Assembly (NCBI GenBank): GCA_016176685.1
Contig: JACOWS010000001.1
Span: 78,113-142,112 of the forward strand
Reading direction: 5' to 3'
Source of the DNA: Patescibacteria group bacterium
GTDB lineage: Bacteria; Patescibacteriota; Minisyncoccia; Phycocordibacterales; SBAW01
DNA: 64,000 bases
Shown in pieces: positions 1,611-35,185 of this stretch. The position numbers and the translations under genes were made by a program. Within the stretch, counting starts at the first letter, position 1. Every line of letters begins with the position of its first letter. The notes under the pieces were generated by a model. That model was not told the DNA's origin. It saw only the letters and a list, made by a program, of their open reading frames with translations, and did not search any database.

Positions 1611-2021
1611 ATGGAACAAGAATCACGAATATATAAATTTTTTATGACCTTGCCTTTTTGGTGGATACTGTTAACAGCTATCTATGTTGGTCTAACATTT
1701 TCAGGCTGGTTGTATGCGGCAGCATTACTGGGTCTGTTCGTTCCTATCGGGGTGTGGGATATGCTATTCTTTAGATTCGCAATTTCAGGATACCCCGTCG
1801 GAGGAATTGGCCTATGGGACTTTGCCATTGGTTTTGTGTTAGTCTTGCTGACTATTTTTGGTGGGGAATGGCTTATTCGTAAGATCAAATTATCTCCTGC
1901 CATGAAAATTTTTGTTATTCTTGGCATACTTTTTGCGCTAACTATTGTGGTTGATTTTGTTCTCTGGGGGAACTGGCAGACGCTAGAACTTCTTAAAGTA
2001 GGTGGCGAGATAACGATATAA
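1611..2021 (+). CDS. hypothetical polytopic membrane protein
   Basis: low-GC ORF, 4 predicted TM helices, Trp-rich; first gene of the low-GC island. Confidence 0.45.
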   Translation: MEQESRIYKFFMTLPFWWILLTAIYVGLTFSGWLYAAALLGLFVPIGVWDMLFFRFAISGYPVGGIGLWDFAIGFVLVLLTIFGGEWLIRKIKLSPAMKIFVILGILFALTIVVDFVLWGNWQTLELLKVGGEITI

Positions 2022-2035
2022 TTATGCTAAATCTG

Positions 2036-2500
2036 CTATGTTTTGTTCAAATTCTCGTAATAGTTTCTTAGAGCTTCCTCTTGTATTTTATGTAAATGTA
2101 TACTCGGCCTTTTAGATGCAATTAAATCAATTGCTTCCTTTGGTTTATACCCTCTTTGTATCAAATAAGCCGATACCAATGTGGGCGCACGCCCATGACC
2201 GTTTTTGCAATGTACATAGATCTTTCTATTTTGAGATACGAGTTTTTGTATTGACTCCGCGCCGAAAGAAAGTTGGTCTTGAGTGGGAGCCATTTGATCA
2301 ACCACTGGAATCCAAACATATATATCGACGCCAAATGGAACATCGAGACGGTTTTCTTCGAGTGATATATCGGCAGTTATGTTTTCTTTCTTCAACACGT
2401 CGGCAAGACCCATGACACAACACTGATTGGTGCCGATATAGATGCCATCGGTAATGTAACTATATTCCAGTATCGGCGTTTTCGGGTGAGTATGATCCAT
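2036..2500 (-). CDS. dual-specificity / protein-tyrosine phosphatase
   Basis: VHCKNGHGRAPT = HCxxGxxR(S/T) catalytic P-loop of the Cys-based phosphatase family. Confidence 0.7.
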   Translation of the reverse strand: MDHTHPKTPILEYSYITDGIYIGTNQCCVMGLADVLKKENITADISLEENRLDVPFGVDIYVWIPVVDQMAPTQDQLSFGAESIQKLVSQNRKIYVHCKNGHGRAPTLVSAYLIQRGYKPKEAIDLIASKRPSIHLHKIQEEALRNYYENLNKT

Positions 2501-2528
2501 ACTAATATTCGATTAAACCGTTTAAATC

Positions 2529-3953
2529 TTACCCAAAAAGCCGAAATAACATGCGCAAAAGTTTTTTTGAACGCGGGTTTAATGCACGCCCTTGGTATGT
2601 TTGAGCGGCCCGCTTATTGATTCTTGCGGCGGTCGGGTACGGATAAATCTTAGCAAATAAATCGGCAAGAGACAGGTGGTGTGTCTGCGCCAATATAAGT
2701 TCCTGTATAAGTTCACCGGCATGTGGAGCAATCATCGTCCCGCCCAATATGTTCCCTTTCTTTGAAACATAAATATTTAACAGGCCATCGCGATAATCGT
2801 CTGTGATGGCGCGATCATCATGAGAGAAATGTTCTGTAACTGTTTCGTACTGGACACCGCGCTCTTTAAGCTCCTCGGTGGAAATGCCGAATGTTGCAAT
2901 TTCCGGGTCGGTGAATGTAACCCAAGACAGGTTGTCGTTAACGAGCTTCTGTTTAAACGGGGAAAACCAATTATGGATGATGGTACTGGCATGAAGTTCG
3001 GCTGCGTGCGTAAATTGATATTGTCCGGCGACATCACCGCACACGACAATATTTTTATTGGTTGTGCGCAGGTACTGGTCGACTTTCAGTTTCTGCCCGC
3101 TTTCCTCAAGTTCGATATGAGCCTTTCCCAGATCAAGGCCTTCAATAGCAAGCTGCCTGCCAATACCTACAAATAATGAGTCCACCGGAAGCGACAGTTC
3201 ACGCCCCAAAACTTCCACGACGAGCTCTCTGCCCTCTCGTATATTTTTTGCCCGAGCATGGAAAAGGATATTCATTCCTTCGCCCACCAGTCGCTTATAC
3301 AAAATATCGGTAATATCTTTATCCTCTTTTGGAAGAAATTTTTCTCCTTGTTCAAGAATGGTAACCTGTGAACCCAGGCGTTGAAACGCTTGTCCGAGCT
3401 CTATACCGATAGGGCCCCCGCCTATGACGACAAGATTTTTAGGAAGAAAATCTATGTTGAAGATATTTTCATTGTTAAAGACCCGCGTATGCTCTATTCC
3501 CGGCAATGATATAGCGCGTGGTCGCGACCCCGTTGCCAACACAATACGCTTGCCTTCATACGCCACGCCTCCGACCATAACCTTATTTTGACTAATAAAT
3601 TTAGCTTCCCCCAGAACGACCGACATACCGCTTTTCCGAAACCAATCGGCATTTTCATGCTCGCGGATGATATCCTGCCTACTTTTCACATACGCCATAA
3701 CCGCCCGCATGTCCACCGTACCGGTATGGGTAATCCCAAATTTTTTAATGGTATGTCCCGCATGTACCGCGCGAGCGACATGAATAAGCGCTTTGCTTGG
3801 TACACAACCAAAATTCAAACAATCGCCGCCGATGCTCTTATCACTTTTATCAATGAGCAGGGTTGACAATCCTATGCGGTTTGCAAAAGCGGCGATATTC
3901 AACCCTCCGGAACCGGCGCCGATGACCATAACATCAAATATTTTATTTTTCAT
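2529..3953 (-). CDS. FAD-dependent pyridine nucleotide-disulfide oxidoreductase (Lpd/MerA-like, no C-terminal Cys pair)
   Basis: N-terminal VMVIGAGSGG FAD fold; redox-active GGDCLNFGCVPSK disulfide; second NAD(P) Rossmann VVIGGGPIGIELG. Confidence 0.8.
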   Translation of the reverse strand: MKNKIFDVMVIGAGSGGLNIAAFANRIGLSTLLIDKSDKSIGGDCLNFGCVPSKALIHVARAVHAGHTIKKFGITHTGTVDMRAVMAYVKSRQDIIREHENADWFRKSGMSVVLGEAKFISQNKVMVGGVAYEGKRIVLATGSRPRAISLPGIEHTRVFNNENIFNIDFLPKNLVVIGGGPIGIELGQAFQRLGSQVTILEQGEKFLPKEDKDITDILYKRLVGEGMNILFHARAKNIREGRELVVEVLGRELSLPVDSLFVGIGRQLAIEGLDLGKAHIELEESGQKLKVDQYLRTTNKNIVVCGDVAGQYQFTHAAELHASTIIHNWFSPFKQKLVNDNLSWVTFTDPEIATFGISTEELKERGVQYETVTEHFSHDDRAITDDYRDGLLNIYVSKKGNILGGTMIAPHAGELIQELILAQTHHLSLADLFAKIYPYPTAARINKRAAQTYQGRALNPRSKKLLRMLFRLFG

Positions 3954-3957
3954 GTTT

Positions 3958-4620
3958 TTACCTTGATGCTATCCTCGTACTTACATACCAGCTTATAAAA
4001 ATTACGGCTGCGGCAAGAAAAACCAGCGGTTGCAACCACACAGGCAGTGTTCCCGCGTACGCAAATACAAAGGCAAATGGCGTGACCCCGATTACCGTAG
4101 CAAAAAAATATGAACGACTCCCTATATTAGAAAAAAGGCCAATGGCATATGACAATATATCAACCGGTATGAGCATCCTAAGAAAAACAATCGTCCAAAA
4201 CATGTTTTGTGTTGAGAATCGTTCCTCAAATCTGTTTAGCTTATCAATGGAAACAAGTTTTTCCACCAGTGGTTTGCCAAAATATCGCGCAATATGAAGA
4301 GCTATTTGAGCGCCGATTGACCAGCCGATAATAGAAAGTATGGCGGCCGCAACCCACCCCCATAGACCAGCGGCCACGGGGATAAGCGGGATGGTTGAAA
4401 TTGGCGCGACCACTACCGCAAGTATGGTGATAAAAACATAGGCTGCCATGCCAAATGCCCCGCCGCGTTCCGCAAGCATGTTTATTTCACTCGCATATAT
4501 TGTTGCCATAAATGATAAAAAAACAAAAAGGGCGAGCACGAGCGCCAGGCTAAATACTGATGCAACGGCATTTTTATTAAAAATATGATTGGCGCTTTTC
4601 TCCATATATTTATTCAACAA
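3958..4620 (-). CDS. DedA/TVP38-TMEM64 family membrane protein
   Basis: polytopic membrane protein with the DedA-like core FLRMLIPVDILSYAIG. Confidence 0.5.
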   Translation of the reverse strand: MLNKYMEKSANHIFNKNAVASVFSLALVLALFVFLSFMATIYASEINMLAERGGAFGMAAYVFITILAVVVAPISTIPLIPVAAGLWGWVAAAILSIIGWSIGAQIALHIARYFGKPLVEKLVSIDKLNRFEERFSTQNMFWTIVFLRMLIPVDILSYAIGLFSNIGSRSYFFATVIGVTPFAFVFAYAGTLPVWLQPLVFLAAAVIFISWYVSTRIASR

Positions 4621-5545
4621 TCACATCTATTTTGCTTCCAAAAACTTTTGAAGCTTTTTCCGTATAGAGCGCTATATTATCTTTAAAATACGGCGGGTGC
4701 TGTTTTTGAATTTGTGCGACAATATAATAACCAATGGCCATCATAGCGGCGTACCCGGCATCTTTTGGAAGCGGTATAGAAAGTCTCCTATCTGGCTCGC
4801 CCCACATAGTATTTTCCTCGCCAAAGCTCACAAAAAGCTCGTTCGAAGGCACTACGGTTACCGCATGTTTCATATATTCGCTGGTTTCCACATCGCGAGC
4901 AATCTTTCTTCCGAAAAGCTCAATGAACTTTACTTCAAGCATTCGTACAATACCTGAAAACCTTGGAGGAACGATGAAAAAATAGGAATCATACTGCGAA
5001 AAGTCTGGGAAGATAATGGTGTCTATCTGTTCTTTAATAAATTCCTGTATTTTCTCCGGGTCTTCGTTCGTTTTCCCTAAAATCATTCCCAAATAGGTAG
5101 AGGTATTATAGGTATACGGCTCGCGATTTTTTGGAAATATAAATATATCGCCAGACTCGACAAATTCTTTTACGGGCGCATCAGAATTGTTGGTAATGAG
5201 AGTAACTTTCTTGCCGAGCTCTTTCGCCCGCTTTGCTATAATCGGCGCGTGTTTCCCGCCGGACGCGGAGATAAGAATTACACCGTCAATATCGGGGATG
5301 TACTTTAGTTTACTTTCAAAATTACTCTCTGAAGCGAAGACTGCGTCTGTGTCTTCAAAAATAATTCTCCCGGTTGCTTCAGCATTACCAGACCCGACCA
5401 CGAGCGGGCGTTTATACTTTAAAATATCTAATTTCGGCAATGCTTGTTTTTGAAAAAGTTCAAGTGCGCCCAAGACCGCCACATCCAAGTCGGGAATGGT
5501 GTTTAAAGTAAATGTATTAAGAATATCAATGTTTTTATGATTCAT
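4610..5545 (-). CDS. SIS-domain-like protein, possibly phosphoglucose/phosphomannose isomerase type (uncertain)
   Basis: two Gly/Ser-rich nucleotide/sugar-phosphate binding-like segments (PLVVGSGNAEATGRI, GVILISASGGKHAPII); co-directional and immediately downstream of zwf-gnd. Confidence 0.3.
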   Translation of the reverse strand: MNHKNIDILNTFTLNTIPDLDVAVLGALELFQKQALPKLDILKYKRPLVVGSGNAEATGRIIFEDTDAVFASESNFESKLKYIPDIDGVILISASGGKHAPIIAKRAKELGKKVTLITNNSDAPVKEFVESGDIFIFPKNREPYTYNTSTYLGMILGKTNEDPEKIQEFIKEQIDTIIFPDFSQYDSYFFIVPPRFSGIVRMLEVKFIELFGRKIARDVETSEYMKHAVTVVPSNELFVSFGEENTMWGEPDRRLSIPLPKDAGYAAMMAIGYYIVAQIQKQHPPYFKDNIALYTEKASKVFGSKIDVIVE

Positions 5546-5556
5546 AATTTTAAGTA

Positions 5557-7956
5557 CTATATTTTATGTCCGCCAAAAACAGCGCGAAGCATGGAAAGAA
5601 TTTTTCCCGTAAATGTCGGGTTCTTTTTTGAGCGTACACGGAAGAGATACGAATCTTTTATGACAGGAGCAGAAACGTCGAGCTCTTTTGCAGTCTGTAC
5701 CGTCCATTCTCCCTCGCCGGTATGAGCCACGGTACTGGATGCTTTTTTCAAGTCATCGCCATACTCTTTAAACCCCTCTTCCAGCCACCCGGTAAGTCGT
5801 GAGGTAATAATGCTGTTTTGATTGTACACATTGGCAACCTCTCGCAGACGAAACTTAAACGGCGCTTTTTGAAGTATTGCAAACCCTTCCGAGAGCGCCT
5901 GCATCATCCCATACTCAATGCCGTTATGAACCATTTTTGCGAAGTGTCCCGCTCCAGCCGCTCCCATATGTCCAGAAGTCGTATCAGACATCGCGTCAAA
6001 AATTGATTTACTGTTCTCATATATTTTTTTATCTCCCCCCACCATAATGGCAAATTTTCCAAGGGCGATAGAGACTGGTCCGCCGGAGACGCCCACATCG
6101 AGAAAATGGATTCCTTTTGCTTTCAATCGCTTTCCTCGACGAACAGAGTCTTTATAGAAAGAATTACCACCGTCAATTACGGTGTCGTCTCTTTTGAGTA
6201 ATTGTGAAAGGCCATTTTGCTTCATCCCGGGCGAAGTCGATTGACCAAAGAGTATCTCGTCCACCGGTTTCCCGGCCGGGACCATAAGCCATATGGTTCG
6301 CGGAGGGGAAAGTTTTTCCACAAATTCCGAAAGAGAATATGCGCCGACCACGCCTTCTTTCTCAAGCTCTTTTGTGGCTTCAGGCGGCGTGTTGAATCCA
6401 ACAACCCTCCATTTTTTTATACTTAGGCGTCTTGCAAGATTGGCACCCATTTTCCCTAAACCGATAATGCCAATCTCTCCGATGTGGTTGCCTACTTCTT
6501 TATCTGCACTGTCTGACAATTCTCTCGTGAAAGACGGGCCGGGGGTACTGTCGGGTTTATATTCGGTCAAAGGCACGAGATTTTGCCTCCATCCCTCTAC
6601 TACCGGATCGGTAAATTTCCAAGATACCAGCACCTCATCGGAAGAGATAAACAAGGTTTGGTCACCTCCCATGGCAGTATTGATAATTTTTGAATACTCT
6701 TCTATATACTGAACTTTTGTCTCTTTTTCATACAAAAAGAAAGAGAAAACGCGTTCTTCTATGGCTTTTTCAAAACCTGGTTTTTTTGTCCAAAAATGTA
6801 TGATGACTTCATCGTTTGGTTCAAGACGAAACACAATTCTGTTTGGAGCATGCGGCCTTTGTGCACACAGAAGACATATTTTTGGGTGCCTAAGCGTCAA
6901 TACTATTTCTTTACGGGCTTCTCCCATGCGCTTCCCAGCTTCCATATATATGGGAATCCCGCTCCAACGAGGATGCAGGAGCTCTGTTTTTAGAGCGAAG
7001 TATGTTTCCGTCTCCGAATTTTGAGCTACCCCCTTTATATCTTTGTAGTTACGGTACTGTGATCTGAAAGTTTCTTTCCGCAGGGTTTCCTCTGTCCACG
7101 GTTTAAGCGTTTCCAAAATAGTTGCTCTGTTTTTCCGTATCCCGCCAGCATTCATATCGGCAGGGTACTCCATAGTAATCGCGGCCAGCATGGTAAGAAT
7201 ATGGTTTTGTCCGACATCACGAAGCGCTCCGACTGAATCATAAAAACCTCCTCTGTCTTCTACCCCAATAGATTCAAGCAGGCGGATATCAATCCGCTCA
7301 ATCATGGTGTTGTCCCAAGCATTCTCAAAAAGATTATTTGAGAAACGAAAGTTTTCTATTCCCTGAATAATTTCCTTGTATAAGTAATGGTCGATTCTAT
7401 ACATTTGCTCTTCTTTGAAATAAGTGGAGAGGAGCGATTGCAGTTTTTTGGCGCTTGACAGATCCGTCCCGAATGGTTTTTCAATCAAAATACGGCTCCA
7501 CCCCATATCTCCTCCGCAGGGCAAGTTAAGTTTTGCTAGAGCGAGATTTTTGAAGATTCGCTCATACGAAGACGGCGGTACGGCAAGATAAAAAAGTTTA
7601 TTGGCGCATATACCCCAACCGTTTTCTATCTCTGCAATGCGGTCTGATAAAGATTGAAACGCTCCCACGTCCTCGAATGTTCCTGCGTGATAGGTGAAGA
7701 GTTCAAAGAAACGGTCAATCTTTTTATCTTCTATTTTTGAATCTGCATGTTTTTTTACCGCTTGGAGAATCAGATTTTTAAACTCTTTATCCGAAAACTC
7801 TCTTCGTGAAAACCCTATGACAGACAAGCGTTCCGGCAAGCGACCATGCTGAAATAGGTGCCAAAGGGACGGTATAATCTTTTTGGCGGCCAAATCTCCC
7901 GTTACACCAAAAATAGTGAAGATGGAAGGCGTATTTTTTATGTTTTCACTACTCAT
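5557..7956 (-). CDS. zwf: fused glucose-6-phosphate dehydrogenase / 6-phosphogluconate dehydrogenase (Zwf-Gnd)
   Basis: N-terminal half has G6PD signatures (FGVTGDLAAKKIIPSL NADP site; EKPFGTDL; C-terminal YKPDSTPGP). C-terminal about 300 aa is a short-type 6PGDH (IGIIGLGKMGANLARRL Rossmann, GHFAKMVHNGIEYGMMQ). Start taken at MSSENIK (7956). Confidence 0.8.
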   Translation of the reverse strand: MSSENIKNTPSIFTIFGVTGDLAAKKIIPSLWHLFQHGRLPERLSVIGFSRREFSDKEFKNLILQAVKKHADSKIEDKKIDRFFELFTYHAGTFEDVGAFQSLSDRIAEIENGWGICANKLFYLAVPPSSYERIFKNLALAKLNLPCGGDMGWSRILIEKPFGTDLSSAKKLQSLLSTYFKEEQMYRIDHYLYKEIIQGIENFRFSNNLFENAWDNTMIERIDIRLLESIGVEDRGGFYDSVGALRDVGQNHILTMLAAITMEYPADMNAGGIRKNRATILETLKPWTEETLRKETFRSQYRNYKDIKGVAQNSETETYFALKTELLHPRWSGIPIYMEAGKRMGEARKEIVLTLRHPKICLLCAQRPHAPNRIVFRLEPNDEVIIHFWTKKPGFEKAIEERVFSFFLYEKETKVQYIEEYSKIINTAMGGDQTLFISSDEVLVSWKFTDPVVEGWRQNLVPLTEYKPDSTPGPSFTRELSDSADKEVGNHIGEIGIIGLGKMGANLARRLSIKKWRVVGFNTPPEATKELEKEGVVGAYSLSEFVEKLSPPRTIWLMVPAGKPVDEILFGQSTSPGMKQNGLSQLLKRDDTVIDGGNSFYKDSVRRGKRLKAKGIHFLDVGVSGGPVSIALGKFAIMVGGDKKIYENSKSIFDAMSDTTSGHMGAAGAGHFAKMVHNGIEYGMMQALSEGFAILQKAPFKFRLREVANVYNQNSIITSRLTGWLEEGFKEYGDDLKKASSTVAHTGEGEWTVQTAKELDVSAPVIKDSYLFRVRSKKNPTFTGKILSMLRAVFGGHKI

Positions 7957-7972
7957 TGTCTTTATGTTGCCA

Positions 7973-8188
7973 TTATGCAAGCAACCCCATAACCTGAAAG
8001 ATATACCCGACAATGATTAACATGATACCCGCAATCCCCATGATTCGCTCCGTCCCCATTTCTTTTACGACACGAGAATCAATCGCGTGCTCTTTACGCG
8101 CACGATCGTGCACCTGAAGAACGGTATAGGCAATCAGAACGGTTCCGATGACATCAAGAGTAATTCCGATAATTAAGAAGGCTGTCAT
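7973..8188 (-). CDS. small membrane protein (hypothetical)
   Basis: 71-aa ORF with two TM helices, co-directional in island operon. Confidence 0.35.
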   Translation of the reverse strand: MTAFLIIGITLDVIGTVLIAYTVLQVHDRARKEHAIDSRVVKEMGTERIMGIAGIMLIIVGYIFQVMGLLA

Positions 8189-8613
8189 ACAAATATTTTT
8201 TTAGTAAGATACATTGAAAGAGGCAGTAAGAAAGTCATTTGAAGAATCGGGGTAAGGCCGACCTTTAGATACGGAATAATCGGCATACCCTCCGCATAAG
8301 CCCATCGCTCGAACAGCAAGGCGCGCCATTCAATCCCTACGGCTATTAAGAATCCAATGACGGCAAAAACGGCAAAATCTTTTTTGTTTAGCGTAGAAAT
8401 CCAATTACGGTCATTTTTTAATAACGCGACAATAAAATAAACAAATAAGGTAACGGCGACATCGCCTATGGTGCCAACTACACATATCGGGAAATGCAAA
8501 GAAAAAGATGCATACCCTTGGTACAAAGGCGCTTGCATATTCTCCCAGACGACATGCAGAACAAACGCAATAAGAGATAAAAAAATAATTTGTTTTCCTA
8601 CTTTCATATACAA
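8185..8613 (-). CDS. membrane protein (hypothetical)
   Basis: 142 aa, 4 TM helices, immediately downstream of merA-like gene, 4-nt overlap. Confidence 0.45.
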   Translation of the reverse strand: MYMKVGKQIIFLSLIAFVLHVVWENMQAPLYQGYASFSLHFPICVVGTIGDVAVTLFVYFIVALLKNDRNWISTLNKKDFAVFAVIGFLIAVGIEWRALLFERWAYAEGMPIIPYLKVGLTPILQMTFLLPLSMYLTKKIFV

Positions 8614-10031
8614 CAGCTTAGTTTAGAAATATCTTTCGTAAATGAAAGTGCGACAATCTTTATCGCCTCCGATAGAGTAGGAAACATCGGGAGCGAATTG
8701 ACCACATCGTCAATCGTATTTTTGTTTTTTATGAGCATCATCGCCTCGGCAATCAGCTCGCTCGCATTTGGAGCGAGAATATGAACGCCTAAGATTTGTT
8801 TTGTGTGCGGATGGATCGCCATTTTTATCATTCCCTCGGTGCGATGAGTAATGATCGCTTTCGGTACATCGGCAAGCGAAACGGTGCGGCAGGCGCACAC
8901 CCCCATTTGCTTCATCTGCTCGTCCTCGGTGAAGCCGACACCGGCGAGTTGTGGGTCGGTAAAAATAGCGTAAGGGACAGTGTGATAGTCAATAAACAAT
9001 TGCGCGTCTTTGAGGGCGTTTTCAGCGGCGAGCGTGCCCTCGCGTCCGGCGGTTGACTCCAGCCGCAAGGGTCCGCTCGTAACATCGCCGACCGCAAAAA
9101 TATTTTTGTTGGAAGTTTGAAAATTTTGATTAACGATAACCGCCTGCCGCTTATCTACTTCAACGCCGGCCAAATCAAGTCCCAGTCCTTGCGTGTTGGG
9201 TGTTTTGCCCGCCGCCAAAAGTATTTCATCTCCCGATACTTCTTCCGATTTTCCATTTACGAGATACGAGATTATCTTTTTATCGTTTTCTTTTCGCGCG
9301 CTTTTCACCTCGACATTGGTCTTGATGGTAATTCCTTCTTTTGACAACACTTCGGCGAGTCGGTCGGTGAGCGTTTTTTCAGAGTGCGGAAAAATTGAAT
9401 CGCCGCGTTGTAAAATAGTTACCTTTGTGCCAAAACGGCTGAACATTTGGGCAAATTCCAAGCCAAGCGGGCCCGCGCCGATGATAACCAATTCTTTCGG
9501 CTGACGCGGAAGGCGCAGTGCCTCAATATGCGAGACAAATCCTACTTCTTTAATTCCTTCAATCTCCGGAACATTGGCGGTCGAGCCGGCAGCGATAATA
9601 AATTTTTCCGCGCTCAACTTTTCGCCGGCTTGCCCCGAGCTTGTCGAGCGGGTCACTTCCACCTCGTTTTCGGAAACAAATGTTGCTTTTCCCTCAACGA
9701 GCGTTACATACTCTAGACTTTTCAGTACCTTCTCGTATTTTTCTTGACGCAATTTGTCCACAAGCGAGAGTTCATCTTGCACGACTTTTTGAAAATCAAA
9801 ACTTTTTACTTCAAGCTCAACACCGGCGACGCCGTGATGTTTGGCGTGGTGCAAAATTTCTCCGGCCCAGAGAAGCGTCTTTGACGGTACGCACCCGACA
9901 TTGACGCAAGTGCCGCCGAGCGGAAGCCCGTCATTGATGATCGCCGTTTTCGCCTTCAGTTCGTTGGCACGGATAGCGGAGGCAAATGCGCCTGCGCCGC
10001 CGCCGATGATGATTAGGTTAAATTCTTGCAT
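8604..10031 (-). CDS. merA: mercuric reductase-like flavoprotein (MerA core, no N-terminal metal-binding domain)
   Basis: IIIGGGAGAF FAD site; GGTCVNVGCVPSK redox disulfide; C-terminus ...KDISKLSCCI matches MerA C-terminal vicinal Cys pair (Tn501 ...KDVKQLSCCAG). Confidence 0.75.
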   Translation of the reverse strand: MQEFNLIIIGGGAGAFASAIRANELKAKTAIINDGLPLGGTCVNVGCVPSKTLLWAGEILHHAKHHGVAGVELEVKSFDFQKVVQDELSLVDKLRQEKYEKVLKSLEYVTLVEGKATFVSENEVEVTRSTSSGQAGEKLSAEKFIIAAGSTANVPEIEGIKEVGFVSHIEALRLPRQPKELVIIGAGPLGLEFAQMFSRFGTKVTILQRGDSIFPHSEKTLTDRLAEVLSKEGITIKTNVEVKSARKENDKKIISYLVNGKSEEVSGDEILLAAGKTPNTQGLGLDLAGVEVDKRQAVIVNQNFQTSNKNIFAVGDVTSGPLRLESTAGREGTLAAENALKDAQLFIDYHTVPYAIFTDPQLAGVGFTEDEQMKQMGVCACRTVSLADVPKAIITHRTEGMIKMAIHPHTKQILGVHILAPNASELIAEAMMLIKNKNTIDDVVNSLPMFPTLSEAIKIVALSFTKDISKLSCCI

Positions 10032-10090
10032 AAAGTTATGCGGGAAGACGCTCCTTGAGCATATCAGCAACGGCGGAAAATGTATATTGA

Positions 10091-10849
10091 TTAAAGGTAA
10101 TCCAACAGACAGTCATAATTTATAAATTGGAATAATTGATAGCCGTAGGAGATAAGCAGTCCGATTTTCCCGGAGACCAAAAGTATGCCGAGGAACACCA
10201 GGAAGATACCGCCGATAATTGAAATAGCGTTAAGATATTTAGAAATATTTTTGATGTAGCGGGAAGCCGAACCGATGCCAATGGCAATGAGCAAAAACGG
10301 AATTGCCAAACCGGCGGAAAAAACGGTAAGCAGCAGTCCGCCCTGCAGGGCGCTGCCGGAGGTAGACGCTAAAAGTAAAACGGAGCCCAATATCGGCCCA
10401 ACACACGGAGTCCAACCGAAAGAGAAAGCCGATCCGAGGATAAAAGAGTTTATCGGTTTTCCCTGCTTAAAAAGAGCCGGGACTTTCAACTGCTTTTCTC
10501 GCATTAAAAACGGAATTTTCAACACATTCAACATGAACAGCCCGAAGATGATGACAAAAACTCCCCCAATTCTCCCAAGCCACAATCGATACGGGGCGAG
10601 AAACGAGGCCGCGATAAAGCCAACGAGCGTTCCCATAATAATAAAGACTGCACTGAACCCAAGCATAAAGAAGAGACCATTGAGTAAAATTTTCCAGCGC
10701 GCGCGCTTCGCCTTTTCCGGGTCTTTAAGGTCATCCAAGGACGCTCCGCTGATAAACCCTAAATAGCCGGGCACCAACGGGAGAGTGCAGGGCGCCAAAA
10801 AAGTGAGCATACCAGCGATAAAGGCGGGGATGATAAGTGATAAGTCCAT
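10091..10849 (-). CDS. ccdA: cytochrome c biogenesis / thiol-disulfide transporter CcdA (DsbD core) family
   Basis: 6 TM; conserved Cys in TM1 (FLAPCTLPLVPGY) and TM4 (GWTPCVGPILG) diagnostic of CcdA/DsbD-beta. Confidence 0.8.
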   Translation of the reverse strand: MDLSLIIPAFIAGMLTFLAPCTLPLVPGYLGFISGASLDDLKDPEKAKRARWKILLNGLFFMLGFSAVFIIMGTLVGFIAASFLAPYRLWLGRIGGVFVIIFGLFMLNVLKIPFLMREKQLKVPALFKQGKPINSFILGSAFSFGWTPCVGPILGSVLLLASTSGSALQGGLLLTVFSAGLAIPFLLIAIGIGSASRYIKNISKYLNAISIIGGIFLVFLGILLVSGKIGLLISYGYQLFQFINYDCLLDYL

Positions 10850-10864
10850 AATTATTTATCTAAT

Positions 10865-11398
10865 TTATGATGATATTAATTTCTGAATCTTTTGGCGAAT
10901 TTCGTTGATATCCATCGGCCCTCGCTTATGCTCTGCAATGGCGCCGTTCCTGTCAACAAAAATCGTTTCGGGCATTGAAAAACCGCTGATGGCCTGATAA
11001 AACGAATCGCCTTGGTCAAGAAGAAAAATCAAATCATTGCTCGTGCCTTGCATATCGGTGTAACCTTTTGCCACTGCTAGGCTCTCTTGCCTGTTTATCG
11101 CGATAATAACAACTTTGTCGCCGAATTCTTTTTGCGCCGTTACGAAATCCGGAAGTTCTTTTCTGCAAAAAGGGCACCACGCCGCCCAAGCATTGATCAC
11201 CAACGGTTTGCCCGAAAAATCGGCAAGGGTTACTGTTTTTCCATTATAATCTTTCAAGGCAAGATTTTTAATGGATGAATCCAGGCTCACGATGCTTACA
11301 TCGGCGGGTTGACTTGAACTACCGCGCTGGAGAACTATAACGATCACTCCCAAAACAACCGCGACGATCGCAATAGAAATAATTATTTTTGCGTTCAT
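10865..11398 (-). CDS. TlpA/ResA-like thioredoxin-fold thiol-disulfide oxidoreductase, membrane-anchored
   Basis: N-terminal TM anchor; VINAWAAWCPFCRKELP = WCxxC thioredoxin motif. Confidence 0.75.
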   Translation of the reverse strand: MNAKIIISIAIVAVVLGVIVIVLQRGSSSQPADVSIVSLDSSIKNLALKDYNGKTVTLADFSGKPLVINAWAAWCPFCRKELPDFVTAQKEFGDKVVIIAINRQESLAVAKGYTDMQGTSNDLIFLLDQGDSFYQAISGFSMPETIFVDRNGAIAEHKRGPMDINEIRQKIQKLISS

Positions 11399-11423
11399 AG
11401 ATTTTAGAATAGATTATTACAAT

Positions 11424-12452
11424 TCATTGTAATAATTCCGTGTCGGGATGCGCGGCAACCCAGGAAAACCAGAACGAGCCGAACGGATTGATGCGCTCAC
11501 GCGTCCCATCGGCTTTCTTTTCATAGAGGCGAATAGCGTCAATGTCTTTCTCATATTCCGCGATAATTATTTTGCCTTGAAAAGAATCTTCAACTACTCC
11601 AATTTTCTTGACCGCCGTCGGCCAATATGCCTTGGCTTTACCGTCCACCACTATTCCCAAAACAAACTCTTTTTCACTCAGCCGATTATCTTTTTTATCG
11701 ACCGGGAAAAAAGTGCCGGGTGAAGTATAGTAGTCCCCATACGGGTCTTGTCCGTAAAATCTTGCCGCTCCGGTGTCTTGCGAAAGCACCTCGCCATTCG
11801 GATGAAGTTTCCGCCAATCCCCGAATCGAATCTGGTCTGACGGCAAGACTTCAAGCCGCGTTCCGGTCTTTTCTCCAACGATTGCTTCGCCTAAAATCTG
11901 CGACCACAACGAATCGGTTTTGCGGTCATACATTACCAAGTTGGAATTCCAAAGCTTGCCGGATGTGCCGAATTCCACTCGTTCTCCGTCCACCATTGGG
12001 GCAAAAACAATTCCCGACAAACACAGCGGGCAGTAGGTAACGAGCACTCGCCGGCCGTTAATAGTATCGTTGACGATTTCGTGCCACACCAAAATTTGAA
12101 ATGGATAAAAACGGCTCACGTTGTCCATTTCAAGCGCCAGACCGGGCTCGGTGTCTTGCAACTGCTTGCTCGCCTCACTGATAGAAATAAATTTTGGACG
12201 GTCAATGGAGGGAATGCCGTCTTTTGCGGGACCGCCGCCCAGGATAGAATCCAAGGGAACACTATGTTTTACTCCGTTTGTAACCATAATTTCTTTATTT
12301 ACTTCACCGCCGTTGTCTAGAATCGTGATTGTTTCTTCTTTGGCTTCTCCACCTTTCGGCAAAGAAAAATCGTCTCTTATAAATCGCTGCCACAATATAA
12401 CGGCAATCGTCGCGATAAAAATAACTATAATTATTGCGCTACTTTTTTTCAT
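11424..12452 (-). CDS. DUF3179-family exported protein
   Basis: N-terminal anchor; GGGPAKDGIPSIDRPKF and YCPLC segments characteristic of DUF3179. Confidence 0.55.
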   Translation of the reverse strand: MKKSSAIIIVIFIATIAVILWQRFIRDDFSLPKGGEAKEETITILDNGGEVNKEIMVTNGVKHSVPLDSILGGGPAKDGIPSIDRPKFISISEASKQLQDTEPGLALEMDNVSRFYPFQILVWHEIVNDTINGRRVLVTYCPLCLSGIVFAPMVDGERVEFGTSGKLWNSNLVMYDRKTDSLWSQILGEAIVGEKTGTRLEVLPSDQIRFGDWRKLHPNGEVLSQDTGAARFYGQDPYGDYYTSPGTFFPVDKKDNRLSEKEFVLGIVVDGKAKAYWPTAVKKIGVVEDSFQGKIIIAEYEKDIDAIRLYEKKADGTRERINPFGSFWFSWVAAHPDTELLQ

Positions 12453-12654
12453 GGATTTTTTCCCAAAGTTCTAACCCTCTTCGGAACAGTCTCCAGTCTT
12501 TGCCAAGACATTTTAAGCAACTCCCAAAACGTTCGCCCGCTTTTAAATATTGTTTATTACCGCAGGGCACGCATATATAAAGACCGTCCTCAGGTACCGT
12601 TGCCCCTACTTTATACGTATCTGCTTGATTTTGTTTTCTTGAAAATAATTTCAT
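12439..12654 (-). CDS. small zinc-ribbon protein
   Basis: CVPC-x14-CLKC four-Cys ribbon; 14-nt overlap with downstream gene. Confidence 0.4.
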   Translation of the reverse strand: MKLFSRKQNQADTYKVGATVPEDGLYICVPCGNKQYLKAGERFGSCLKCLGKDWRLFRRGLELWEKIHEKK

Positions 12655-12666
12655 TGATGTATAGGT

Positions 12667-13173
12667 TTAATTGATAAGCGAGGTAATATCTGATTCCTGG
12701 ATATCTCCGGGAATAGTACGAACAAGGTTACCGTTTATATCTATCAGAAGATGGGTATTGGTGTACTGAATGCCGAAAGCGCGCGAGATGCGGCCGCTAG
12801 GATCAAGCGCGATGGGGAACGTAATGCCTTTTGTTGCGATAAATTTTTCTATGGTTGACTCTGATTCCTGAAGATTAACCCCGACAACCTCCACCTTATC
12901 CTTGTATTTTTCATAAAAACGATTAAGGTTCGGCATATCGCGGCGGCAGTTTGGACACCACGAAGCCCAAAAATCAACCACGACTGGTTTCTTTCCCCTA
13001 AACTCCGCGAGTGTTATCGTGCCACCACCCAACTTCTGTAGCGTAAAATCCGAAACGGCGGCAGTATGCACTGAAGCGGTACCGGGAGTGGCATTGCTAC
13101 TGGAGAATTTGCCGAACACCAAAAGACCTACCACAACCACCACTACGCCCACGATAAGAAATTTTGTACTCAT
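12667..13173 (-). CDS. TlpA/ResA-like thioredoxin-fold thiol-disulfide oxidoreductase, membrane-anchored (second copy)
   Basis: N-terminal TM; VVDFWASWCPNCRRDMP WCxxC motif. Confidence 0.75.
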   Translation of the reverse strand: MSTKFLIVGVVVVVVGLLVFGKFSSSNATPGTASVHTAAVSDFTLQKLGGGTITLAEFRGKKPVVVDFWASWCPNCRRDMPNLNRFYEKYKDKVEVVGVNLQESESTIEKFIATKGITFPIALDPSGRISRAFGIQYTNTHLLIDINGNLVRTIPGDIQESDITSLIN

Positions 13174-13184
13174 ATGCTTGGACT

Positions 13185-13421
13185 TTACGTAATCCCCAAA
13201 AGCTTTCGAAGTTTTGGCTCGTCAAAACCCGTTACCATCTCATTATCGACCAAAATGACCGGTACGCCCATTTGGCCACTTTTTTGAATCATTTCATCAC
13301 GTCTCGCAGAATCTTCCGAAACGTCATAGTCAGTGAACGCAATAGTGTGTTCCTTGAAAAATTCTTTAGTCGCATGACAGAAGTGACACGTTGGCGTTGA
13401 ATACATAATTACGTTTTTCAT
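13185..13421 (-). CDS. glutaredoxin/NrdH-like redoxin
   Basis: MYSTPTCHFCHATKEFF CxxC at the N-terminus of a ~78-aa thioredoxin fold; GVPVILVDNE motif. Confidence 0.7.
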   Translation of the reverse strand: MKNVIMYSTPTCHFCHATKEFFKEHTIAFTDYDVSEDSARRDEMIQKSGQMGVPVILVDNEMVTGFDEPKLRKLLGIT

Positions 13422-13466
13422 AGTGTTTTTAAGTTATTTTTTAATTACATTACTTTGATAATTCTT

Positions 13467-14057
13467 TTACTCACGGGCCTTTTTCAATGCTCGTGCCCAC
13501 CACAAAAGCTGGGTGATCATGGTTTCTGCTTTCTTTGACTGCGAAGCAAATAGGTCTTTAGCTTCCGTCTTGCCGAATACCACTGGAAAATACTGTTCAC
13601 CCGGAATGTGTACGGCCGCTCGGATAGGTGCCATTTGAAGCTCGATGGCATTCATGCGCAACTGTTCAATGGCGCGCGCACCTCCGGCGCTACCATAACT
13701 CACAAAGGCAACCGTCTTGTTATTCCATTCCGGATACACCCAATCCAGCGCGTTTTTTAGCACGCCGGATGTTCCGTGGTTGTATTCGGGCGTGACGATG
13801 ACAAAAGCATCGCCTTCTTCTATTTTTTTGGTAAAACGCGCGACCGCTTCGTTTTTATATGGTTCTTGTTTGAATGACGGACTTACTGCTTCATTAAAAA
13901 ATGGCATTTCGTAGTCGCGCAAGTCAAGCACTTCAACCACGACCCCTTCCTGTTTCCCGATTTCTTCGGCAATCCACAGAGCAGCCTTGTCACTAAATCG
14001 ACCCTCACGAGTGCTACCGGCAATTACTTTAATAGTAAGTGATGCGTTGTTTTTCAT
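13467..14057 (-). CDS. NADPH-dependent FMN reductase family protein
   Basis: IKVIAGSTREGRFS and VIVTPEYNHGTSGVLKNALDW are signature segments of the FMN_red (ArsH/ChrR/YieF) family. Confidence 0.75.
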   Translation of the reverse strand: MKNNASLTIKVIAGSTREGRFSDKAALWIAEEIGKQEGVVVEVLDLRDYEMPFFNEAVSPSFKQEPYKNEAVARFTKKIEEGDAFVIVTPEYNHGTSGVLKNALDWVYPEWNNKTVAFVSYGSAGGARAIEQLRMNAIELQMAPIRAAVHIPGEQYFPVVFGKTEAKDLFASQSKKAETMITQLLWWARALKKARE

Positions 14058-14064
14058 ATTACTT

Positions 14065-14373
14065 TTACATTACACTGATAATCTTCTTAATTTTTGGGTC
14101 CTCTATCTTTGGCCTGTAGCACATCATCTGCCCCATCTTTTCGCCCTCGATCATTCTCGACATCTCAAGTATCCGCAGGTGTTGCGATACTGCCGATACT
14201 GAAATATCCAGGACATTGGCAAGGTCGGTGACACACAATTCCCCTTGTTCGATAAGAAGTTTTATAATAAGAAAGCGATTCTGGTCTCCAAGCAAACCAA
14301 ACACATCGACCAAAGAAGTGCTTTGTGCCTTAAGGGTTTCCTTAATTTTTGATATTTGCGCTGGTTCTAACAT
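14065..14373 (-). CDS. ArsR/SmtB-family metalloregulatory transcription factor
   Basis: winged HTH LIIKLLIEQGELCVTDLANVLDISVSAVSQHLRILE; first gene of the minus-strand redox operon. Confidence 0.75.
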   Translation of the reverse strand: MLEPAQISKIKETLKAQSTSLVDVFGLLGDQNRFLIIKLLIEQGELCVTDLANVLDISVSAVSQHLRILEMSRMIEGEKMGQMMCYRPKIEDPKIKKIISVM

Positions 14374-14473: not shown

Positions 14474-14545
14474 TCCTCTCGGCAGGAATCGAACCTGCAT
14501 CGCCTCCTTCGGAGGGAGGTATCTTATCCATTAGACTACGAGAGG
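14474..14545 (-). tRNA. tRNA-Arg (anticodon CCG)
   Basis: reverse complement folds as CCTCTCG/CGAGAGG acceptor, D-arm GTCT..AGAT, anticodon stem CCTCC/GGAGG with loop CTCCGAA, T-arm GCAGG-TTCGATT-CCTGC; CCA not encoded. Confidence 0.85.
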
Positions 14546-18561: not shown

Positions 18562-18634
18562 CCGCCCGTAGCTCAGTTGGTAGAGCAGGAACCTTTTAAG
18601 TTCAAGGTCGCAGGTTCGATCCCTGCCGGGCGGA
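18562..18634 (+). tRNA. tRNA-Lys (anticodon TTT)
   Basis: CCGCCCG/CGGGCGG acceptor, GCTC-AGTTGGTA-GAGC D-arm, anticodon loop CTTTTAA, GCAGG-TTCGATC-CCTGC T-arm; close to E. coli tRNA-Lys body. Confidence 0.85.
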
Positions 18635-18635
18635 C

Positions 18636-19469
18636 ATGGAAAGTTTTAAGCATAGATGCGTTGTGCTACGGAAACAAGATTACTCTCTCTTGGAAATAGC
18701 TAGGATAACCGGTAGGCCGAAGTCATCAGTGTATTTCCATATCCGCAACATACCGCTCAGCCCTAGGAAATATCAAAAAATACACGCACTCAATATACAA
18801 CACCTTCTTCGGGTTGCCCGATCTAGAAAAGGAAAGAGTATAAGGGAGTTTAAAAAAATCTACCGATGGAACCCGGAGAATGTATCGCTAGTTGCCCACC
18901 TTCTTTTCGATGGCGAAATAAAACGAAGTGGTTGTGTATACAATAACCGCAACAAAATATTGTTAAAAAAGGTCGAGGTGAGTATGAAGAAGATGTATCG
19001 TTTTTCTCCAACACGCTATTACAACCCAAACACCGGTGTCTCACGAATAAGTTATTTTAACGTGGCACTAGGAAATTACATGGAGCAAAAAGCAAAAGAA
19101 CTGTGGCAGTGTCTTGGGGAATTACCTCTTGAGACTAAAAGGTCTTTTCTTCGGGCCTTTTTCGACGATGAGGGGTGCATCGATTTTAGACCAAAAACAA
19201 ATTCTAGAAGGATACGCGGCTACCAAAAAGATATCGCAATACTGGAACACGTTTCGCAAGCGTTGCGTAATTTTGGCATTACATCAAGAATCCAAAAACC
19301 AAATGAGGTGGTTATTACCGGCCGCAATAATTTGATCATGTTTCAAAAAGAGATAGGGTTTACCGCTGGAGTGTATATCAACGGGAACCGATCAAATAGT
19401 ATCTGGAAAAAACATCTAGAGAAGCGAGAAATCCTCGCCAGAGCAATTCACTCATATATTAAAGTGTGA
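18636..19469 (+). CDS. LAGLIDADG-family homing endonuclease (double-motif, free-standing)
   Basis: two LAGLIDADG-type motifs LVAHLLFDGEI and LRAFFDDEGCI about 100 aa apart; N-terminal HTH-like LLEIARITGRPKSSVYFHI; GC about 38% versus about 60% in flanks; starts 2 nt after tRNA-Lys. Confidence 0.75.
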   Translation: MESFKHRCVVLRKQDYSLLEIARITGRPKSSVYFHIRNIPLSPRKYQKIHALNIQHLLRVARSRKGKSIREFKKIYRWNPENVSLVAHLLFDGEIKRSGCVYNNRNKILLKKVEVSMKKMYRFSPTRYYNPNTGVSRISYFNVALGNYMEQKAKELWQCLGELPLETKRSFLRAFFDDEGCIDFRPKTNSRRIRGYQKDIAILEHVSQALRNFGITSRIQKPNEVVITGRNNLIMFQKEIGFTAGVYINGNRSNSIWKKHLEKREILARAIHSYIKV

Positions 19470-23014: not shown

Positions 23015-24697
23015 ATGGTCCAGTTTAGAGATGCCGAGGAACAAAAACATTTAGACTTTCTGCGCAAGCGCGAGGAAGAAGATCTCGCGCAAATGCTCGC
23101 ACAAAAATATGGAGTAGCGTATGTCGACCTTACGCTGGTTGCTATAAACGCAGATGCCTTGCGGTTGATAACAGAAGCAGACGCCCGCAACGCCGAGGCG
23201 GCGACCTTTGGCCGTGTCGGCAAGCACGTGTCTCTTGCCGCACGCTCACCGGAAAACCCCAAAGTCAAAGCGCTGGTTGAGAAACTAAAAGAGCTTGGAT
23301 ATCAGGTGGTGGTCTTCATCACTTCAAGCGAGTCGCTCAAGCGCGCGTTTGAGCGCTATGCCGACCTTTCCTATGCAACCGAAACAAAGGCCGGGGTGTT
23401 TGAACTCTCCAACCAAGAGCTTGAGGATCTGTTGGGTAAGGTCGAGAAATTGGAGGACGTTAGTACACTCATCAACGAAGCCATAGAGCTTAAAAAAGCC
23501 TATCGCATTACTCGTATACTGGAAGTTGTTCTTGCAGGAGGCCTTTCCACCGGGGCCTCGGATGTACATTTTGAGCCGGAGGAAAAGTCGGTGCGCCTGC
23601 GCTACCGGCTAGACGGCGTCTTGACCGATGTAACCATGTTCGACCACGAGACCTACGGCTTAGTTTTGAGCCGGCTTAAACTGCTCTCCGGGCTCAAACT
23701 AAATGTCGAGCACGAGGCGCAGGACGGACGTTTTTCCGTAAAAATAAAAGAGAGCGAGATAGAACTGCGCACCAGTGTTTTGCCCGGCAACTATGCCGAG
23801 ACTTTGGTGATGCGTATCCTTAACCCCACTACCATCGGGGTGCAGCTTGAAGCGCTCGGCCTTGAGGAAAAGTTGCGTATGCGGATAGAAAAAGAGCTGG
23901 AAAAACCAAACGGTATGATACTCACCACCGGTCCCACCGGTTCCGGCAAAACTACGACGCTCTACGCCTTTTTGCGCAAGGTTAACAAGCCGGGGAATAA
24001 AATTATCACCATTGAAGACCCTATCGAGTACCACCTGGACGGCATTGTGCAGACACAGGTTGATATAAAAAAATACAGCTTTGCCCAAGGGCTACGCTCG
24101 GCACTTCGGCAAGACCCGGACATCATTATGGTGGGCGAGATACGCGACGGAGAGGTTGCCGAGGTGGCTATCAACGCGGCGCTCACCGGACACCTGGTGT
24201 TCTCAACACTCCACACCAACGACGCGGCGGGGTCGTTCCCCCGGCTTATTGACCTTGGCGTCAGCGAAAAAGTGCTTTCCTCCGCCATTAACGTAGCGAT
24301 TGCACAGCGGCTGGTACGCACCCTGTGCACACAATGTAAAAAGGGGCGGACGGCGACTCCAGAGGAGCAAAAAATTATAAACGACACGCTCGCTGGAGTA
24401 ACCGACCAGTCGCTGGTGCCACAGGATAACACAAAGGTATATGATGCAGGCAAGGAAGGATGCGGTGCGTGCCATGGGCGCGGCTACAAAGGGCGCATTG
24501 GCATATTTGAGGCGATATTTATGGATAGTGCCATAGAAACAATTTTGCGCGAAAAGCCCAGCGAGCGCGAGGTCGCCGCCGCGGCCAAGCCGCAAGGCAT
24601 CCCCACCATACAGCAGGACGGCATTATCAAGGTCTTGCGCGGCATTACCTCGCTTGAGGAGTTAGCGCGCGTGGCAGACCTACACACTGCCAATTGA
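23015..24697 (+). CDS. pilB: type IV pilus / type II secretion assembly ATPase (PilB/GspE family)
   Basis: GPTGSGKTTT Walker A, DPDIIMVGEIRD Walker B/Asp box, C-terminal tetra-Cys CTQC...CGAC zinc site. Confidence 0.85.
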   Translation: MVQFRDAEEQKHLDFLRKREEEDLAQMLAQKYGVAYVDLTLVAINADALRLITEADARNAEAATFGRVGKHVSLAARSPENPKVKALVEKLKELGYQVVVFITSSESLKRAFERYADLSYATETKAGVFELSNQELEDLLGKVEKLEDVSTLINEAIELKKAYRITRILEVVLAGGLSTGASDVHFEPEEKSVRLRYRLDGVLTDVTMFDHETYGLVLSRLKLLSGLKLNVEHEAQDGRFSVKIKESEIELRTSVLPGNYAETLVMRILNPTTIGVQLEALGLEEKLRMRIEKELEKPNGMILTTGPTGSGKTTTLYAFLRKVNKPGNKIITIEDPIEYHLDGIVQTQVDIKKYSFAQGLRSALRQDPDIIMVGEIRDGEVAEVAINAALTGHLVFSTLHTNDAAGSFPRLIDLGVSEKVLSSAINVAIAQRLVRTLCTQCKKGRTATPEEQKIINDTLAGVTDQSLVPQDNTKVYDAGKEGCGACHGRGYKGRIGIFEAIFMDSAIETILREKPSEREVAAAAKPQGIPTIQQDGIIKVLRGITSLEELARVADLHTAN

Positions 24698-31550: not shown

Positions 31551-31591
31551 AAAACTTGATTTGCTAGCTGCGCGAGGCAGTATCGATAACA

Positions 31592-32002: not shown

Positions 32003-32012
32003 TTTATAAAAC

Positions 32013-34654: not shown

Positions 34655-34768
34655 ACGGGTGTGCGGTACGACAAGGATACGCGAGCGAACCCAATGCGTC
34701 AAAAATCGTTCCATTACCTTTTTTGTGCACAAGTTGTGGAGAATTGGTGGATATCGTATAGTAGACAG

Positions 34769-34903: not shown

Positions 34904-34918
34904 GGTTATAGTGGCACT

Positions 34919-35182: not shown

Positions 35183-35185
35183 TAC

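Follow-up and report, generated by a model that had tools for sequence, protein, structure and literature searches.

Our analysis of a 64,000-nucleotide stretch from a Patescibacteria genome (GenBank assembly GCA_016176685.1, contig JACOWS010000001.1, positions 78,113 to 142,112 of the forward strand; hereafter the window, to which coordinates refer unless another locus is named) is centered on a minus-strand gene in which zwf and gnd, the first coding for glucose-6-phosphate dehydrogenase (G6PD), the second for a short-type 6-phosphogluconate dehydrogenase (6PGDH), are joined in a single frame. The gene and the parts of its product are laid out as follows:

5557..7956, minus strand: fused zwf::gnd, G6PD followed by short-type 6PGDH, 799 aa (MBI2004622.1)
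7363..7914, minus strand: G6PD NAD(P)-binding domain, residues 15-198, with GxxGDLA (G17, G20, L22), R51 and EKPFG at 159-163 (from Pfam and alignments)
6511..7350, minus strand: G6PD C-terminal catalytic domain, residues 203-482, with His252 inside the motif DVGQNH (from Pfam and alignments)
6478..6549, minus strand: inter-domain linker, about residues 470-493 (from alignment, structure model and junction DNA)
5968..6477, minus strand: 6PGDH Rossmann domain, residues 494-663, with GLGKMG at 499-504, F-N-T-P at 521-524 and GGNS at 596-599 (from Pfam, alignment and structure matches)
5560..5949, minus strand: helical domain of short 6PGDH, residues 670-799, with K674, H677, N678, E681, Y682, GEGxW at 747-751, R773, R791 and FGGH at 794-797

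The open reading frame (ORF) is uninterrupted, running from an ATG at 7956 to a stop at 5557-5559, and the junction DNA between the two halves contains neither a stop nor a change of frame; a TTG-started version (5557-8013, minus strand) contains the ATG-started 799-aa ORF and would overlap the upstream gene. The protein is present in the NCBI nr database on a 143.5-kb contig, under the name [quoted passage not shown]. A sequence-only reading of the window had described it as a single polypeptide combining G6PD, with signatures up to the peptide YKPDSTPGP, a linker of about 20 aa and a 6PGDH-like enzyme, and had proposed a search for four Pfam domains. All four are found: G6PD_N (15-198, E 2.6e-56) and G6PD_C (203-482, E 2e-74) in the N-terminal half, followed by NAD_binding_2 (494-663, E 8.6e-43) and 6PGD (670-778) in the C-terminal half. 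The last match spans just positions 1-115 of the 290 in the profile, which identifies this half as the short (~300-aa) type of 6PGDH. The NCBIfam cut-offs are likewise passed: residues 1-485 score 462.7 bits against the zwf equivalog TIGR00871 (cut-off 400.6), and residues 494-799 score 309.9 bits against gnd_rel TIGR00872 (cut-off 297.2) and 321.2 bits against NF007161 (cut-off 271). Among solved structures, residues 9-463 come closest to ordinary G6PDs (E about 1e-82), and residues 494-797 to 6vpb, 4e21, 8ihe and 6xeq, which are short tetrameric 6PGDHs (E about 1e-50), the best matches of this half being enzymes of 330-358 aa. YKPDSTPGP occupies residues 466-474, the ORF also holds IGIIGLGKMGANLA (495-508) and GHFAKMVHNGIEYGMMQ (670-686), and every peptide quoted in the sequence-only reading is present. 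Each testable element of that reading is borne out. The linker is variable in sequence among homologues, ranges in length from 0 to about 30 residues and is predicted to be disordered: in an AlphaFold2 model (mean pLDDT 84.8, pTM 0.59) both halves are well folded and residues 480-491 fall below a pLDDT of 50, which points to a flexible tether and not to a fixed interface between the halves.

Conservation was judged in an alignment of 49 fused homologues sharing 58-87% identity. In the G6PD half, the motifs GxxGDL (17-22), EKPFG (159-163), RIDHY..KE (187-195, just upstream of the C-terminal catalytic domain), D247, Q250, H252 and K342 are invariant or at least 90% conserved, and R51 is kept in 48 of the 49. 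Upon alignment with human G6PD (1qki), R51 falls on R72, the 2′-phosphate contact, the IDH and Lys coincide with those of RIDHYLGKE, and H252 matches the catalytic His in QNH; the single deviation is a Tyr in place of the Gly of RIDHYLGKE (HYLYKE). In the 6PGDH half, the same level of conservation is seen for GLGKMG, GGNS, GHFxKMxHNGIEYG (670-683), GEGxW, R773, R791 and FGGH, including K674, H677, N678, E681 and H797, and these motifs align to the short 6PGDH structures. The catalytic and substrate-binding residues of sheep 6PGDH are S128, K183, H186, N187, E190, R287, R446 and H452, and we take K674, H677, N678, E681, R773, R791 and H797 to be the equivalents of the last seven of these. The cofactor site after strand beta2 (residues 521-524; nucleotides 6385-6396) is divergent: the window protein, alone among the 49, displays F-N-T-P, which departs from the NADP-specific fingerprint N-R-T/S. 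Relatives at 85% identity carry F-N-R-S, position 523 is R or K in 33 of the 49, and after strand beta2 most carry an NADP-type N-(R/K)-(S/T) and 10 of the 49 an Asp. This substitution may mark an altered NADP/NAD preference.

The fusion extends well beyond this genome. Among 5.8 billion proteins searched for the same architecture, as the sequence-only reading had proposed, the 120 best matches are all fused, 776-856 aa long, endowed with all four domains and 57-87% identical to the window protein. They derive from NCBI, JGI, ENA and Logan assemblies and are labelled as Uhr-, Roizman-, Harrison-, Niyogi-, Wolfe-, Magasanik-, Nomura-, Levy- and Liptonbacteria or as Parcubacteria, with some bearing the JGI name "G6PD / 6PGDH (decarboxylating)". 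Thus, the fusion defines a widespread Patescibacteria family that is already in public databases, and, with the diatom precedent discussed below, its novelty is lower than that reading had implied. For the comparison of loci, relatives were drawn from a scan of one genome per GTDB species, with the best 80 of 594 used in the ORF analysis. Fused zwf::gnd genes are borne by many loci of the candidate phyla radiation (CPR) and by contigs of metagenome-assembled genomes (up to 293 kb) labelled Coriobacteriia, Slackia and Actinomycetes. Unfused genes in the same order, zwf→gnd, are found in other CPR, in Mycobacterium and other Actinomycetota, and in Bacillales, while the order gnd→zwf is seen in Chloroflexota, Chlorobi, Proteobacteria, Bacteroidota and others. 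Rough neighbor-joining trees of either half place every fused gene in one CPR-type zwf→gnd clade, and the Actinomycetota-labelled fused copies (loci L010, L012, L013 and L014) nest within it, which suggests either transfer from CPR to Actinomycetota or mis-binning. In the unfused parcubacterial locus L009 and the Mycobacterium loci L022 and L024, gnd begins with an ATG 3-5 codons from the zwf stop and in frame with it, such that a fusion would result if one stop codon were lost. L009 itself nests among the fused genes in the G6PD tree; here a lone in-frame TAG, followed by RRTM, separates the halves (4945-4951 of that locus), and it may reflect a fission of recent date, an intermediate state or an error in sequencing.

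The two dehydrogenases catalyze non-consecutive steps in the oxidative pentose phosphate pathway (PPP), with the intervening step being that of 6-phosphogluconolactonase (Pgl). Among the window ORFs that were scanned with Pfam, the fusion protein included, none matched the Glucosamine_iso or Lactonase families. We also built our own Pgl hidden Markov model (HMM) from 22 zwf-adjacent genes of non-CPR loci, three of them confirmed as Glucosamine_iso by Pfam, and ran it with HMMER filters off over the window and all fetched loci, covering every ORF of 80 aa or longer. It detected no pgl within the 64-kb window, where the best match had an E-value of 9.3, in agreement with the earlier claim that the fusion includes no lactonase and that no pgl lies nearby. 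CPR do have divergent homologues of Pgl (E 1e-8 to 1e-18), among the fetched loci solely where zwf and gnd are unfused. Indeed, a nearby pgl is found in 0/51 CPR-type fused loci, as against 7/13 CPR-type unfused zwf→gnd loci and 22/37 loci of the gnd→zwf clades, in counts that come from non-independent loci with limited flanks. Fusion and loss of the linked pgl are hence in strong association, which is not proof of a genome-wide absence of the enzyme.

The fused gene lies in a low-GC island, as the sequence-only reading had noticed, that is made up almost entirely of minus-strand genes, those around the fusion being spaced by -11 to +28 nt:

1611..14373: low-GC island, 12.8 kb, GC 0.39-0.49 and third-codon-position GC (GC3) 0.33-0.56, versus GC3 of 0.57-0.70 in the flanking housekeeping genes
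2036..2500, minus strand: dual-specificity phosphatase, also matching PF22741 (PTP-NADK, the type fused to NAD kinase)
2529..3953, minus strand: second class-I FAD pyridine-nucleotide disulfide oxidoreductase, under all equivalog cut-offs
3958..4620, minus strand: VTT/DedA-family membrane protein
4610..5545, minus strand: X311, 311-aa double-SIS phosphosugar-isomerase-like protein (MBI2004621.1, HYS79_00480), 11 nt downstream of the fusion
7973..8613, minus strand: pair of small membrane proteins (71 aa and 142 aa) separating the fusion from merA
8604..10070, minus strand: MerA, mercuric reductase core (TIGR02053, 518 bits versus 454.45), with a C-terminal Cys pair, ending in KLSCCI
10091..14373, minus strand: CcdA/DsbD_TM protein, ResA/TlpA-like redoxin, DUF3179 protein, second redoxin, NADPH-dependent FMN reductase, and the ArsR/SmtB metalloregulator heading the string
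14474..14545, minus strand: tRNA-Arg(CCG) at the right edge of the island

In gene order, the ArsR/SmtB regulator is followed by the NADPH-dependent FMN reductase, the ResA-like redoxin, DUF3179, the second redoxin, CcdA/DsbD_TM, MerA, the two small membrane proteins, the fusion, X311, DedA/VTT, the second disulfide oxidoreductase and the dual-specificity phosphatase. MerA enzymes are NADPH-dependent. The gene for the 71-aa membrane protein precedes the fusion in most related loci, and thiol-redox neighbors of the fusion (glutaredoxins, thioredoxins, redoxins, DsbD, Pyr_redox_2 and ArsR) recur in loci of Niyogibacteria, Levybacteria and Parcubacteria. The block 2520-8178 is 80% identical at the DNA level to an Uhrbacteria contig, and several segments of the island, among them 10092-13052, match a complete Niyogibacteria genome at 69-79% identity. 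That contig and that genome each have an overall GC of about 43%, against about 54% in the present host, and hence the host has probably acquired the island, which looks to have been laterally transferred among CPR lineages. No integrase was found at the island edges, no att-like direct repeats of at least 10 nt are shared by the tRNA-Arg and the left border, and a promoter and terminator scan of the island gave counts not clearly over those of shuffled sequence. The dual-specificity phosphatase recurs beside the fusion in three distant genomes (the window; L003, 8758-9222; L087, 10394-10876), and it may be linked to NADP(H) metabolism or its regulation.

Downstream of the fusion lies X311, a gene tightly linked to PPP operons, whose product had been called SIS-like and proves to be so by fold. 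It matches no Pfam or NCBIfam family: against Pfam SIS it scores 13.4 bits, below the gathering score of 25, and it does not reach that of SIS_2 either. Among 56 close homologues, 36 show a SIS match at E<=1, almost all under the gathering score, which one distant member (P0260) just passes at 25.7 bits. An AlphaFold2 model (pLDDT 92.4, pTM 0.92) displays an isomerase-type double-SIS fold. Only S52, E142, N147, Y151, K206, E209, H227 and Q280 are invariant across 79 divergent members of the family. Profile-profile comparison (hhalign) of a shallow and a deeper X311 alignment with E. coli GlmS and Pgi gave nothing significant, hmmsearch against the PDB matched only the SxSG loop, and no similarity to phosphoglucose isomerase (PGI, PF00342) emerged, the profile methods giving no alignment. 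When K206, E209 and H227 are compared with K485, E488 and H504 of GlmS, a local pairwise alignment pairs the Lys and His with their counterparts and leaves the register of the Glu ambiguous. The family comprises 2,377 homologues, all labelled "hypothetical", of which the top 120 listed span nominal CPR phyla at 68-86% identity, and it forms just 265 clusters at 50% identity among 1.84 billion representatives.

X311 is highly conserved and almost always lies next to zwf, gnd, tal or tkt in CPR (the window; L036, L086, L089-L168). In 80 metagenome loci with X311 relatives, 66 also encode matches to G6PD, 6PGDH and/or transaldolase, mostly directly upstream of X311 on the same strand, in typical orders such as fusion-X311, fusion-tal-X311 and fusion-tktN-tktC-tal-X311; about ten loci differ in having zwf/gnd downstream of X311 or tal on the other strand. 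X311 takes the place that pgl has in unfused operons, which raised the possibility that it replaces Pgl. This is unlikely because pgl and X311 co-occur in three operons (L036, L133 and L167), and the isomerase-type double-SIS fold likewise speaks against a lactonase. X311 is joined to other domains in two cases: the cluster representative P0302 couples a glucokinase domain (PF02685, 3-196) to an X311 domain (253-460), and P0339 couples riboflavin kinase to X311. The former is either a Rosetta-stone hint that X311 acts on hexose 6-phosphate or a merged gene call. Our best guess, for which we would put the chances at about even, is that X311 is an aldose-ketose isomerase acting on hexose 6-phosphate, recycling fructose 6-phosphate to glucose 6-phosphate in the manner of PGI. 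More tentatively still, one may envisage the fusion as part of a mobile Patescibacteria module for NADPH supply that lacks a classical lactonase, wherein X311, as a new double-SIS family, would complete the oxidative PPP cycle, most likely as a non-canonical PGI and less likely by handling ribulose 5-phosphate or the lactone.

From the intact gene, the family membership of its halves, their conserved catalytic residues, the distribution and origin of the fusion, and its genomic context, we infer its enzyme activities, cofactor use, lactone handling and physiological role. We have good confidence that the product is a bifunctional oxidative-PPP enzyme with tethered halves, which arose by stop-codon loss in Patescibacteria and resides here on an acquired island, most likely supplying NADPH to the co-encoded reductases. 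The N-terminal half would oxidize glucose 6-phosphate to 6-phosphoglucono-delta-lactone, generating NADPH; the lactone would be hydrolyzed off this polypeptide, either spontaneously or by an unlinked enzyme; and the C-terminal half would oxidatively decarboxylate 6-phosphogluconate to ribulose 5-phosphate, generating a second NAD(P)H. A simple substrate channel is excluded, since 6PGDH can act only once the lactone has been hydrolyzed. Rather, the flexible, poorly conserved tether would provide 1:1 co-expression and co-localization, and stoichiometric co-expression with proximity is the likely benefit of the fusion. We propose that the stop codon was lost between translationally coupled zwf and gnd genes within Patescibacteria, and that the fusion then reached this genome on the horizontally acquired low-GC island. 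The candidate recipients of its NADPH are MerA, the second FAD disulfide reductase, the NADPH-FMN reductase and the CcdA/ResA-type thiol relay.

Several alternatives bear on the identity and integrity of the product. With zwf and gnd just 3-5 in-frame codons apart in unfused relatives, one miscalled base could merge them, and the single ORF might be an artefact of assembly, frameshift or gene calling. We regard this as vanishingly improbable and reject it: full-length fusions make up all 120 best matches, from NCBI, JGI, ENA and Logan assemblies alike, the ORF is single in 51 loci, and the linker is coding, with a length that varies across homologues. It is thus these independent assemblies, and not the raw reads of this sample, that exclude the objection of a frameshift or stop. 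The C-terminal half could also be viewed as another beta-hydroxyacid dehydrogenase of the 3-hydroxyisobutyrate (HIBADH), tartronate-semialdehyde or L-threonate type, given that it has the NAD_binding_2 Rossmann domain in common with these and shows weak matches to them. This too is very improbable. Its scores against HIBADH, tartronate-semialdehyde reductase, L-threonate dehydrogenase and sulfolactaldehyde reductase are 54-84 bits versus cut-offs of 290-451 (for HIBADH and tartronate-semialdehyde families 77-84 versus 290-397: TIGR01692, 77.1 versus 291.6; TIGR01505, 81.9 versus 340.75; NF008592, 84.1 versus 397), and on this basis we reject a HIBADH-type identity, the alternative that the sequence-only reading had named as refuting its own assignment. 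Moreover, the gnd_rel and NF007161 cut-offs are passed, the best PDB matches are short 6PGDHs, and conservation of the 6PGDH-specific GHFxKMVHNGIEYG, GEGxW and RxxFGGH is complete or at least 90%. A splitting of the polypeptide after synthesis, or additional production of the 6PGDH half from an internal start, which would yield separate enzymes, is unlikely as well. The predicted disorder of the linker in the structure model would permit it, and Kroth et al. mention the possible cleavage of some diatom fusion proteins (PMC2173943). Set against this, there is no ATG or GTG between residue 470 and the Rossmann motif, the sole TTG there (L482) has no spaced Shine-Dalgarno sequence, and the retention of the fused state across a large clade suggests selection for the fusion.

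The cofactor of the second step and the physiological role of the family are less tightly constrained. The 6PGDH half might prefer NAD+ or be dual-specific, with a yield of one NADPH and one NADH per pass. The F-N-T-P unique to the window protein has no fingerprint Arg, TIGR00872 is named as NAD+-dependent, and the closest solved short 6PGDHs include the NAD+-dependent 8ihe. Nevertheless, the Asn is kept where 6vpb, 4e21 and 8ihe have an Asp, most fused relatives have N-R/K-S/T, and NF007161, also passed, is named as NADP-dependent; we therefore deem this preference possible though rather doubtful. We likewise lean against the proposal that the main role of the family is carbon flux, as an oxidative PPP cycle or shunt supplying pentoses and circumventing the phosphofructokinase that CPR often lack, with NADPH for stress being secondary and the redox context merely reflecting the composition of the island. 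In its favor, the fusion heads operons with a split transketolase, transaldolase and X311 in many loci, and the CPR literature describes a PPP shunt in place of phosphofructokinase (PMC5220378, PMC7143001). On the other hand, no other PPP gene was detected in the 64-kb window, several NAD(P)H-linked reductases lie in the same orientation as the fusion, and thiol-redox neighbors recur in three distant genomes; the two roles are also not mutually exclusive. The proposed bifunctional enzyme supplying NADPH to the island must be held against several observations that weigh on the other side: F-N-T-P lacks the fingerprint Arg/Lys, so the second step may not be NADPH-specific; many other genomes place the fusion in carbon-metabolism operons (transketolase, transaldolase, X311), so a role in NADPH for stress may be specific to the island rather than primary to the family; the absence of pgl covers just the 64 kb and the flanks of the loci, not whole genomes; some diatom fusion proteins may be cleaved after translation, as noted above; and we found no published activity measurement for any bacterial member.

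The remainder of the window is typical of CPR housekeeping, with dnaA/dnaN, polA, ruvABC, a penicillin-binding protein, and pilus or type IV secretion genes. A cluster of dnaN, dnaA, an rnpA-like ORF, yidC and jag (R3H) at 32013-36387 implies that the window includes the chromosomal origin region. Other observations include: a low-GC (0.41) LAGLIDADG homing-endonuclease-like ORF at 18562-19469, which begins right after tRNA-Lys(TTT) and looks like a second small inserted element; a low-GC patch at 31000-34000 (GC 0.40) with a HAD-like ORF, a NUDIX gene and dnaN; another at 53000-55500 (GC 0.44) with a 485-aa ORF (53582-55039) that has no Pfam match; a cluster of large secreted or membrane proteins at 36500-48738, also devoid of Pfam matches other than one to T4SS_pilin (37739-38653); and a PilB-type T2SSE ATPase at 23015-24697.

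A widespread single-gene oxidative branch would show how some CPR bacteria make NADPH, and its placement among MerA, disulfide reductases and thiol-relay proteins would tie this capacity to defense against metal and oxidative stress. Pipelines annotate the fused proteins solely as "glucose-6-phosphate dehydrogenase", with the consequence that metabolic reconstructions will overlook the 6PGDH step. Three leads are more original: the association of fusion with loss of the linked lactonase, which offers a natural test of the dispensability of this enzyme when the dehydrogenases are tethered, the mobile island for NADPH, thiol and metal stress, and the orphan double-SIS family X311, the most novel element, which is a candidate for a sugar-phosphate isomerase step that is missing from the central metabolism of CPR.

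[quoted passage not shown] This is a G6PDH/6PGDH fusion from the diatom Phaeodactylum tricornutum (protein 54663 / XP_002183714.1; Kroth 2008, PMC2173943; Stover 2011, PMC3148214), described in 2011 as unique in nr (PMC3148214); our literature search found no biochemical characterization of either it or the CPR fusion. Both have G6PD first, in one frame with a short spacer, and join steps 1 and 3 of the PPP without the lactonase. However, the diatom fusion is eukaryotic, cytosolic and reported to be restricted to one species and its closest relatives, whereas the CPR fusion constitutes a large bacterial family; the local loss of a stop codon explains the latter, which suggests that the two are of independent origin. 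That fusions of PPP genes recur independently is shown by G6PD::6PGL proteins (PMC3148214). These well-known fusions (GluPho of Plasmodium, G6PD::6PGL of Giardia and Trichomonas, and metazoan H6PD) similarly join G6PD to an oxidative-PPP enzyme, but in these the partner is the lactonase of the consecutive step, with a Glucosamine_iso fold, whereas in the window protein it is 6PGDH and no Glucosamine_iso domain is present. In comparison with the known double-SIS isomerases and deaminases (the GlmS isomerase domain, NagB-II, AgaS, Lmo0035 (2aml) and PGI), X311 does not significantly match Pfam SIS, GlmS or Pgi, be it by sequence or by profile, and stands as a compact family of its own that is tied to PPP operons. 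Finally, relative to the separate zwf and short-type gnd genes (TIGR00872/NF007161) of zwf-gnd(-pgl) and gnd-zwf-pgl operons, each half of the fusion is an orthodox member with all its catalytic motifs. Unfused operons of CPR, Mycobacterium and Bacillales have the same gene order, with the window version being one polypeptide, and the linked pgl seen in 7/13 CPR-type and 22/37 gnd-zwf unfused loci is absent from 51/51 fused ones.

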